Assembly (NCBI RefSeq): GCF_003334785.1
Contig: NZ_QOWV01000005.1
DNA length: 64,000 nt
Source of the DNA: Escherichia coli
Lineage (GTDB): Bacteria; Pseudomonadota; Gammaproteobacteria; Enterobacterales; Enterobacteriaceae
Reading direction: 5' to 3' (one strand)
Made by a program: the position numbers and the translations under genes. The notes beneath the pieces were generated by a model, which ran no database searches, was not told the DNA's origin, and saw only the letters and a program-made list of their open reading frames with translations. Position 1 is the stretch's first letter. Each line of letters begins with the position of its first letter. Below are positions 39,775 to 40,520 of the stretch, piece after piece.

Positions 39775-40041
39775 TTGTGTGGATTTTCTGTGGTAGCGGA
39801 TCCTACCACGACTCTGCAGGTTAAAAACACTGGCAGTCTGAGTGTTAATCGGTATGGATGGATTAACATCTGGATGGCTATTTTAGGTCAATTCTTCACC
39901 CTATTTCCACTTTTTTTTGAATCGTGTCTCATTCTGTTAAAAACGTGGCTGGAAATTTTTCCTGACAATGCCGGCATTCTGCGTATTTATCTTTTGCAAT
40001 TTTCTGCCATTGTGGGGTATAAAACGCGGCGCGCGGCTTAA
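39775..40041 (+). CDS. yqgD: small hydrophobic protein, probably YqgD
   Basis: 88-aa ORF upstream of and divergent from metK; assignment by position only. Confidence 0.35.
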
Positions 40042-40253
40042 ATAAAAAGCACACGACGTTTCTTTCGTGTTGCCACTTCCAGCCGGGTTGAAATCAGAGT
40101 TTTGGCTTGTGGGTTCGTCTTAACAGGCGGCCGTGGAGGTGATACGAAATAATGAACCGTTGTCTGCTGCTTAACCTGTCTCACCGTTCTGGTGAAGATT
40201 CGTTCCCCGCACTCTGCATCTCTGCTTTGCATACCTGCCGATGTTATACCCAT
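40038..40253 (-). CDS. yqgC: small protein, probably YqgC
   Basis: 71-aa ORF in the position and with the length expected for yqgC. Confidence 0.4.
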
Positions 40254-40388
40254 CTCGGCGCTTCTCAGGATTCAAGAGCTGGTTACAGTTACTGAGGACT
40301 GAACAAGGGCGCTCTTGTAAAAACAAGAGTTTTCTCGTGGTTTCGCCGAACTTTCACACTTACGTTCGGTTATGTGCTTAATAATGTT

Positions 40389-40520
40389 ATGAAAAAGAAA
40401 CCGGTTGCGCAGTTGGAGCGTCAGCATTCACTGCTGGAAAATCCATGTGCTTATGGGTTGTTATCGCAGTTCCAGGCTGCGATAGTCGTTAACTGTTTTA
40501 CACTTAATAAAATAATTTGA
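40389..40520 (+). CDS. yqgB: small acid-stress protein YqgB, immediately upstream of speA
   Basis: 43 aa [43 protein letters not shown]; stop 8 nt before the speA ATG. Confidence 0.6.

Follow-up and report, generated by a model that had tools for sequence, protein, structure and literature searches.

The genes metK and speA of Escherichia coli are divergent neighbours, and the spacer between them holds a set of small open reading frames (ORFs). We analysed this spacer in a 64,000-nt stretch of E. coli DNA (RefSeq assembly GCF_003334785.1, contig NZ_QOWV01000005.1), here called the window, whose positions and strands are used throughout. We propose that two of the small ORFs, yqgG and yqgB, are upstream ORFs (uORFs) on a folded leader of speA, the gene for the biosynthetic arginine decarboxylase (ADC). 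Translation of yqgB would open the speA start site, and Rho would otherwise terminate the transcript. We put the probability of this reading at about 0.6. The ORF conservation, stop codon placement, covariation and synonymous constraint described below were computed.

yqgB is open in every genome and ends at the speA start

We sampled 80 loci from different Enterobacteriaceae species, anchored on the first 200 residues of SpeA; the loci are SpeA relatives of at least 95% identity and the genomes all lie within the Enterobacteriaceae. We found that metK and speA are divergent neighbours, 633–1039 nt apart, in 76 of the 80. ORF counts below are out of the 76 genomes with an aligned metK-speA spacer, and intactness was judged by alignment projection. 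The spacer is largely conserved relative to E. coli, with 39%–100% identity in 10-nt windows. The 861 bases around the small ORFs match E. coli K-12 at 100% identity and were found in 5426 of 5426 complete E. coli genomes (at least 95% identity). The K-12 record, NC_000913, annotates four small genes in the spacer, yqgD, yqgC, yqgG and yqgB (Table 1). Positions convert as K12 = 3126440 - window, and the window plus strand is the K-12 minus strand.

The ATG of yqgB is present and its frame open in 76/76 genomes. In 57 of them 8 nt separate the stop codon from the speA AUG, and there the TGA overlaps the speA Shine-Dalgarno (SD) sequence (UGAGG). yqgB overlaps speA by 8 nt in the other 19, where it stops at the TGA of ATGTCTGA. 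Three extra loci (L083-L085, two of them Buttiauxella) all have the overlapping arrangement. Palindromic insertions of 20, 50, 116 and 125 nt in the 3' part of yqgB rewrite the C-terminus of its product, and the frame stays open. The ORF list also gives yqgB as a GTG-extended 48-aa version from 40374. An earlier note on this DNA, made from the letters and their ORFs, had measured 8 nt between the 43-aa ORF and speA and had suggested a leader or co-translated small protein affecting speA expression. The gap is correct (from the last base of the TGA, 40520, to the speA ATG at 40529). For yqgB the suggestion is supported by the open frame, the fixed stop placement and the invariant hairpin at the speA start, and Adams et al. 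2021 named yqgB-speA a candidate uORF-regulated pair.

Codon-position diversity in yqgB is 0.20/0.25/0.23, with no third-position excess; the control values are 0/0/0.14 for metK and 0.05/0.08/0.15 for speA. The conserved blocks of yqgB do not vary at any of the three codon positions; GGG TTG TTA TCG, for example, is identical in 75-76/76 genomes. We found that the 'YGLLS' and 'AIVVN' blocks of YqgB pair with each other in the RNA, as the arms of a single helix, H9. A C-to-U change in Buttiauxella replaces Ser with Leu and the pair is kept (C-G to U-G), and the loop becomes a GGGG/CCCC stem extension. Judged from these alignments, much of the conservation of the YqgB 'protein' is that of RNA helix arms.

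The yqgB translation initiation region (TIR) is among the most accessible segments of the leader, with an opening energy of 6.6 versus a mean of 13.8 kcal/mol, and initiation at the yqgB start codon has been seen in a cell-free system. YqgB matches the families PF11036 (113.2 bits, residues 1-43) and NF033844 (90.1 bits versus a cut-off of 35).

The speA start site lies in an invariant hairpin

The speA SD and AUG are paired in hairpin H10, whose 3' arm lies inside the speA coding sequence, and a second helix, H11, clamps its foot. The 16 pairs of H10 and 6 pairs of H11 are essentially invariant in an alignment of 47 leader sequences, in which the H10 pairs are formed in 99.2% of cells. The local dG of H10 is -21.2 kcal/mol, and the probability of being unpaired is 0.07 for the speA SD. 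Where the H10 arms lie within speA, 9/12 degenerate third positions are invariant, compared with 2.9% of such sites across codons 51-300 (binomial P=2.7e-12). Third positions in the first 50 speA codons have a diversity of 0.13-0.25, for the most part lower than in later codons (0.24-0.47), and the loop codons 5-9 vary even in amino acid.

Two anatomical features expected of translational coupling are present: an upstream stop at or near the downstream start in 76/76 genomes, and a downstream SD and AUG paired in a conserved structure. When this is modelled, the ribosome that reaches the yqgB stop has to sit on the 5' arm of H10 and unfold it.

An internal in-frame speA start at Met27 (40607) has been published. 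It lies just downstream of H10/H11, and therefore coupling to yqgB may control only the long SpeA isoform. Within 40592-40609 (speA codons 22-27), the third positions of codons 22-24 (ATG CAG GAG), which form the SD of the Met27 start, are also invariant.

The speA leader is long, conserved and folded

The speA transcription start site (TSS) was placed at about 40031 from the 5' end of the speA 5' untranslated region (UTR) clone of Adams et al. (primer GCGCGGCTTAAATAAAAAGC), which gives a leader of about 500 nt. The block of the -10 hexamer and the TSS is 90-93% conserved; a promoter scan did not list the speA promoter site under its criteria. We aligned 47 non-redundant leaders over 40029-40588 and folded them with RNAalifold. 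The leader is conserved and folded, and five of its hairpins covary (H1, H3, H4, H5 and H7). Pairable cells make up 98.1% versus 95.6% in shuffled alignments, and sliding the partners by 1-3 columns lowers this to 33-50%. Changes on both sides of a pair were seen in 133 cells where 43.8 were expected from shuffles, a number reached by 0/500 shuffles. The E. coli leader alone folds into the same helices (z = -3.2).

The columns of H2, H6, H9, H10 and H11 are invariant, and so the support for these helices is synonymous-site invariance, not covariation. A possible long-range helix between the 5' end of the mRNA (40031-40039) and the RAG codons of yqgG (40276-40283) is 98.7% pairable, has no changes on both sides and does not do better than shuffles.

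In other Enterobacteriaceae, palindromic elements of 50-125 nt that resemble enterobacterial repetitive intergenic consensus (ERIC) sequences or intergenic repeat units (IRU) are inserted at three hot spots of the leader. These lie after 40043 (loci L049, L018, L013, L041, L060, L050 and others), after 40244 (L012, L017) and after 40509 (L079, L030, L051, L033, L037, L078). The insertions inside yqgB keep the ORF open and end ...GGTATACACTT, recreating the 5' arm of H11.

yqgG is a translated ORF with a conserved C-terminus

The yqgG ATG is found in 75/76 genomes, and the ORF is 43-64 aa long (47 aa in 42 genomes). YqgG is a full-length member of PF23505 (129.7 bits, residues 1-47), and the protein was detected when tagged with the sequential peptide affinity (SPA) tag (Weaver et al. 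2019). No NCBIfam family matched YqgG, and a sequence search of the PDB returned only chance matches for YqgG and YqgB. The 80 YqgG homologues almost all carry Enterobacteriaceae names, and the few others are isolated or partial records. Relatives of YqgB and YqgG turned up almost exclusively in the Enterobacteriaceae, out to Buttiauxella, Kosakonia, Cronobacter and Siccibacter, in a search that needs shared 5-residue words and that more distant relatives could escape.

The yqgG SD is sequestered by an anti-SD in H2, with a probability of being unpaired of 0.01. The N-terminal half of yqgG encodes hairpin H4, whose loop is the conserved 'RSG', and in Buttiauxella the H4 stem is kept and the peptide changed. 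By this sequence comparison the N-terminal half evolves as an RNA hairpin. The C-terminus is conserved. Positions 40233-40272 (T28-D40; ACCTGCCGATGTTATACCCATCTCGGCGCTTCTCAGGAT) are near-invariant at all codon positions and keep CGA, a rare Arg codon, in 76/76 genomes; the structure predicted there is no more than a short hairpin of 3-5 bp. Synonymous change is free in D40-G44: Arg42 is kept in 76/76 genomes through AGA, AGG, CGG and CGA, and Ala43 in 76/76 through GCT, GCC and GCG. Fixed residues with synonymous change are a signature of selection on the peptide.

A C-rich, G-poor tract resembling a Rho utilization (rut) site runs through yqgG (C/G ratio 1.4-1.9). The yqgG stop lies 1-19 nt upstream of H5, a terminator-like hairpin, across genomes; in the window H5 begins 8 nt past it. 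Together with the sequestered SD, these features argue for a regulatory function of yqgG.

Rho-dependent termination is reported for the leader

Adams et al. 2021 reported Rho-dependent termination from a fusion to the speA 5'UTR (window 40031-40528) and from northern blots. They saw abundant short 5' fragments and ascribed a full-length band to a likely yqgG-yqgB-speAB transcript. Their Term-seq data place a 3' end at window 40586, 57 nt into speA, with a Rho score of 3.09 and a 'uORF' tag, and a second 3' end in the leader at 40145. We found that each of these ends lies exactly 4 nt 3' of the foot of one of the two strongest conserved structures: 40586 of the H11 foot (40582) and 40145 of the H2 foot (40141). 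This suggests that the Term-seq ends are exonucleolytically trimmed, structure-protected RNA ends rather than termination points. The two elements of a uORF/Rho attenuator, a translated uORF and Rho-dependent termination downstream of it, are thus both in the literature. Rho dependence and the 3' ends are taken from these papers, as are the translation of YqgG and the absence of YqgC.

yqgD and yqgC are probably not genes

The headline of the earlier note was a cluster of three small ORFs, of which two overlap convergently. The ORFs lie where it put them: 39775..40041 (+), 88 aa from a TTG; 40038..40253 (-), 71 aa; and 40389..40520 (+), 43 aa. The 3' ends of the first two share 4 nt (TTAA, 40038-40041). 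Compared with annotated genes, the three are yqgD, yqgC and yqgB, the 88-aa ORF being the TTG-extended form (TTG 39775) of the 83-aa yqgD. A fourth annotated small gene, yqgG, antisense to yqgC and the better conserved of the two, had been overlooked. The observation is real, yet ordinary as ORF content. We simulated the 794-nt metK-speA spacer 2000 times with a first-order Markov model. The longest ORF was at least 88 aa in 33% of simulated spacers, two ORFs of at least 71 aa were found in 25%, and ORFs of at least 43 aa numbered 4.2 on average versus 7 observed (P=0.10). The ORF lengths are compatible with chance; real features were told from chance ones by conservation and not by length. 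The convergent pair is not supported: both ORFs are chance-sized, neither is intact outside Escherichia, and neither has the openness across genera and the third-position excess of a protein-coding gene.

yqgD is projected intact in 4/76 genomes, all Escherichia. Its start is kept in 21/76 and its frame in 26/76, and a stop-free stretch of at least 80 codons is found in about 25/76, but start and frame are mostly lost. Its codon-position diversity is flat (0.274/0.274/0.255). It has no Pfam or NCBIfam match, though the K-12 record names DUF2684. The ORF overlies the antisense of the metK 5'UTR, a metK promoter-like site and the speA promoter, and the most conserved DNA within it is the metK promoter-like site with a MetJ-box-like run. 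From its sequence, yqgD is probably a fortuitous ORF over regulatory DNA.

An intact yqgC is found in 6/76 genomes, each of them Escherichia. The only reason that 75/76 retain its ATG is that the opposite strand there reads CAT, an invariant His codon (His34) of yqgG. Codon-position diversity is 0.238/0.247/0.254. The ORF lies opposite the first 220 nt of the speA leader and opposite yqgG, and H1, read on the minus strand, forms a terminator-like hairpin within its last 11 codons. The earlier note would have given up the two longer ORFs if they lacked ribosome occupancy. For yqgC this is what Weaver et al. 2019 found: the overlapping genes yqgG and yqgC were both tagged, and yqgC had no ribosome density and no SPA-tagged protein. 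The NCBI Prokaryotic Genome Annotation Pipeline (PGAP) retains yqgD, yqgG and yqgB and omits yqgC. The family PF17430 (YqgC-like) matches residues 1-51 of YqgC (133.4 bits), that is, window 40101-40253 (-); this is the antisense of the yqgG 5' half, the yqgG SD and hairpin H3. The family therefore looks like a by-product of conservation on the opposite strand. NCBIfam gave YqgC only a chance 15-bit match. We conclude that yqgC is probably a fortuitous ORF antisense to the speA leader.

A review lists yqgC, there mislabelled afuC, among potential SOS box genes. We found no CTG-N10-CAG LexA box in 39700-40560, where the best 20-mer consensus match was 11/20, and in the cited transcript table yqgC and yqgD are not SOS-induced.

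It is very unlikely that yqgD and yqgC are a real, young, Escherichia-specific convergent pair, with yqgC and yqgG as a mutual antisense 'excludon': both are annotated in NC_000913 and are intact in the sampled Escherichia species save for one internal stop in yqgD, yqgC has its Pfam match, and a list of excludons drawn from RNA-seq coverage includes yqgG-yqgC as a divergent one, but the pair carries no coding signature, the Pfam match coincides exactly with the strand opposite the conserved leader, and transcription of yqgD would have to start from a promoter within the metK 5' region.

Table 1. Genes, promoter elements and RNA helices of the metK-speA region (window positions)
Feature	Position	Strand	Remarks
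metK CDS (methionine adenosyltransferase)	38580..39734	-	divergent neighbour of speA
yqgD (b2941), 83 aa	39790..40041	+	NC_000913 annotation, GTG start 39790
MetJ-box-like octamer run	39879..39848	-	putative; 18/32 matches to 4x AGACGTCT; consensus match only
metK promoter-like hexamers TGGAAA-18-TAAAAT	39909..39880	-	putative; consensus match only
speA-operon promoter	39994..40031	+	from sequence; TTGCAA (39994-39999), 18 nt, TATAAA (40018-40023), GC-rich discriminator
yqgC (b2940), 71 aa	40038..40253	-	NC_000913 annotation
H1, 5' stem-loop of leader	40049..40073	+	2 pairs with changes on both sides
H2, anti-SD CACUUCCA (40074-40081) with yqgG SD UGGAGGUG (40134-40141)	40074..40141	+	invariant in 47/47 sequences; encloses H3
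H3, covarying hairpin inside H2	40115-40130	+	5/6 pairs changed on both sides
yqgG (b4784), 47 aa	40152..40295	+	NC_000913 annotation
H4, covarying hairpin in yqgG codons 10-15	40181-40195	+	4/5 pairs changed on both sides
H5, terminator-like hairpin with U-rich tail	40303..40338	+	inner stem CUCUUG/CAAGAG (40312-40329), outer ACAAGGG/UUCUCGU; 2 pairs covary, in 13 + 2 sequences
H6, GGUUUC (40339-40344) with GAAACC (40397-40402, yqgB codons 3-5)	40339..40402	+	invariant; encloses H7 and the yqgB AUG
H7, covarying hairpin inside H6	40346-40369	+	changes on both sides
yqgB (b2939), 43 aa	40389..40520	+	NC_000913 annotation
H9, GGUUGUUAUCGC (40456-40467, 'YGLLS') with GCGAUAG..UAACU (40479-40494, 'AIVVN')	inside yqgB	+	invariant
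H10, speA start-site hairpin, GUUCGCUAUGUCUGACGA (40522-40539, AUG at 40529) with UCGUCAGCGGGCGAAC (40559-40574, speA codons 11-16)		+	16 bp
H11, clamp on H10, UACACU (40499-40504) with GGUGUA (40577-40582)		+	6 pairs
speA CDS (biosynthetic arginine decarboxylase)	40529..42505	+	regulated gene; ATG at 40529

A model of speA regulation and the points against it

Three parts of the picture are inferred: that speA is coupled to yqgB, what yqgG does, and which signal is sensed. In the proposed model the speA SD and AUG are locked in the conserved H10/H11 hairpin. A ribosome translating yqgB would stop at the UGA over the speA SD or, in a quarter of species, at AUGUCUGA; there it would unfold the 5' arm of H10 and so expose the speA start. 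If speA stays untranslated, Rho would terminate transcription early in speA, and the RNA would be trimmed back to the foot of the hairpin, which fits the published Term-seq and Rho-mutant results. yqgG, whose SD is sequestered and which covers the rut-like tract and ends before H5, would probably set the supply of transcript and ribosomes downstream, perhaps through its conserved C-terminal peptide.

Several points weigh against this model. The helices on which it most depends (H2, H6, H9, H10 and H11) are invariant, hence without compensatory changes. The opening energy of the speA TIR, 11.7 kcal/mol, is unexceptional against the leader mean; since it is average for this RNA, we dropped opening energy as evidence for a locked speA start. 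The Met27 TIR has the same value, by coincidence. In two Citrobacter species an ERIC-like insertion splits the YqgG C-terminus, so the C-terminal peptide is not indispensable. Some yqgB codons keep their residue through synonymous change (Ala7 in four codons, Val33 in three), and on this account selection may also act on the YqgB peptide. Initiation at yqgB was undetected in vivo by Ribo-RET, and in the literature YqgB is taken to be a protein, with phenotypes in acid stress and towards colistin.

Alternative explanations

The likeliest alternative is that YqgB is a trans-acting small protein ('acid stress response protein', 'virulence promoting factor') whose place before speA is a matter of operon packing. 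We consider this rather unlikely. YqgB belongs to PF11036 and NF033844, is on the Adams et al. list of experimentally validated small proteins and has the synonymously kept codons just described. Its conserved blocks, however, are the three-position-invariant ones that pair together as an RNA helix, its variable blocks are free to vary in amino acid, and 20-125-nt insertions rewrite its C-terminus with the frame always open to the speA start. A deletion phenotype from Hobbs et al. 2010 reportedly lies behind the name 'acid stress response protein'.

Further genetic data on YqgB come from a 2026 study of Salmonella, in which a delta-yqgB strain was sensitised to colistin and acid and drug binding to YqgB was reported. 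The deletion lowered speA and speB mRNA, ADC, agmatinase and spermidine, and polyamines (putrescine or spermidine) rescued it, as expected from a defect in cis. Such a deletion cannot separate loss of yqgB translation from loss of leader RNA, and the word 'complement' is absent from the main text of the paper. These data can be explained by a cis effect on speA no less well than by a protein function. Overexpressed YqgB induced heat-shock proteins of the aggregation type, not an arrest-like response, which also argues against a trans-acting protein.

A second alternative is that the leader is mainly a sensor RNA for a ligand, a protein or a small RNA (sRNA), riboswitch-like or a target of the CsrA or Hfq type, with the uORFs secondary. 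The many conserved helices, the anti-SD that sequesters the yqgG SD and long blocks invariant at every codon position, such as 40233-40272, would fit this. An Rfam 15 scan of 38300-41000 at E<=1, however, gave no match in the spacer. RNA binding alone leaves the start codons (76/76 and 75/76) and the fixed stops unexplained, and the synonymous change in the C-terminal DSRAG of YqgG is typical of selection on a peptide. We regard a sensor RNA of this kind as improbable.

Classical ribosome-mediated attenuation, in which translation of a yqgG leader peptide decides whether H5 forms as an intrinsic terminator, seems to us more doubtful still. H5 covaries, has a U-rich tail and begins just past the yqgG stop. 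In E. coli the 3' arm of H5 recurs as CAAGAGC in yqgG codons 41-43, a copy that could pair with the 5' arm. We rejected this antiterminator: the H5 variant CUCCUG/CAGGAG leaves 2 mismatches in 7. In contrast to attenuators of the trp/his type, yqgG has no run of regulatory codons (four scattered Arg in 47 residues), the antiterminator is unconserved, no Term-seq 3' end is listed at H5, and termination in the leader is reported to be Rho-dependent.

Related systems

The uORF model of the speA leader can be set beside the attenuators tnaC-tnaA, speFL-speF and mdtU-mdtJI of E. coli and Salmonella. Like them, the speA leader is long, precedes a gene of amino-acid or polyamine metabolism and carries a translated short ORF; it has a uORF (here yqgG) that covers a C-rich rut-like tract, and Rho-dependent premature termination downstream. 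Like theirs, the C-terminal part of the YqgG peptide is conserved and the N-terminus is not. By analogy, YqgG, with its conserved C-terminus, variable N-terminus and Rho-controlled leader, resembles TnaC, SpeFL, MdtU and SecM; the C-terminal R-A-G that it shares with the SecM arrest motif is a resemblance only. The speA leader differs in having two uORFs in series, and its Rho-dependent 3' end maps within speA, past the second uORF rather than past yqgG. YqgB is unlike this type in that on overexpression it falls outside the arrest-like candidates and induces aggregation-type heat-shock proteins instead.

Coupling by hairpin melting is known from MS2 coat-replicase, from rpmI-rplT in the IF3 operon and from secM-secA, where it exposes the secA SD. 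yqgB-speA is like these systems in that the upstream stop overlaps the downstream SD at no more than 8 nt from the AUG, a conserved stem holds that SD and AUG, and the frame is open up to there in 76/76 genomes. Unlike them, it has the 3' arm of the hairpin inside the downstream coding sequence, an internal start (Met27) downstream of the structure, and a coupling that is predicted from anatomy. The families PF11036, NF033844, PF23505 and PF17430, of which the ORFs of the window are full-length members (113, 90, 130 and 133 bits), describe sequences, not functions.

The same Rfam scan had one match elsewhere in 38300-41000, downstream of metK: the Brucella sRNA CI337, a chance match at 19.8 bits versus a gathering score of 229. 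It sits on the metK terminator hairpin (38560..38536, minus strand), which is adjoined by a sequence, GCCGGATGCGGCGTGAACGCCTATCC, like a repetitive extragenic palindromic (REP) element (window 38503-38560).

Implications for polyamine synthesis

Putrescine represses speA. We found no paper in the literature that gives a mechanism for this repression. A tentative extension of the uORF model, which we think possible and not probable, is a two-stage sensor: YqgG would be a metabolite-sensing nascent peptide whose translation or stalling controls Rho access and the folding of the RNA downstream, and YqgB a pure coupling uORF. The genes and the general suggestion of uORFs are already in databases and papers. 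As far as we found, three things have no published description: the anatomy of the coupling, the origin of the YqgB 'motifs' in an RNA helix, and conservation of the YqgG C-terminus as a peptide.

If our reading of the leader holds, its two uORFs, locked start and Rho termination offer a concrete model of speA regulation. yqgC, yqgD and the YqgC-like Pfam family would then appear as by-products of conserved regulatory sequence. The acid sensitivity, virulence and colistin sensitisation attributed to YqgB may then be polar or cis effects on polyamine synthesis, a point of weight for studies that take YqgB as a drug target. If the two-stage sensor is real, the names 'acid stress response protein' and 'virulence promoting factor', and the use of YqgB as a drug target, would rest on a cis effect on speA expression and hence on polyamines.

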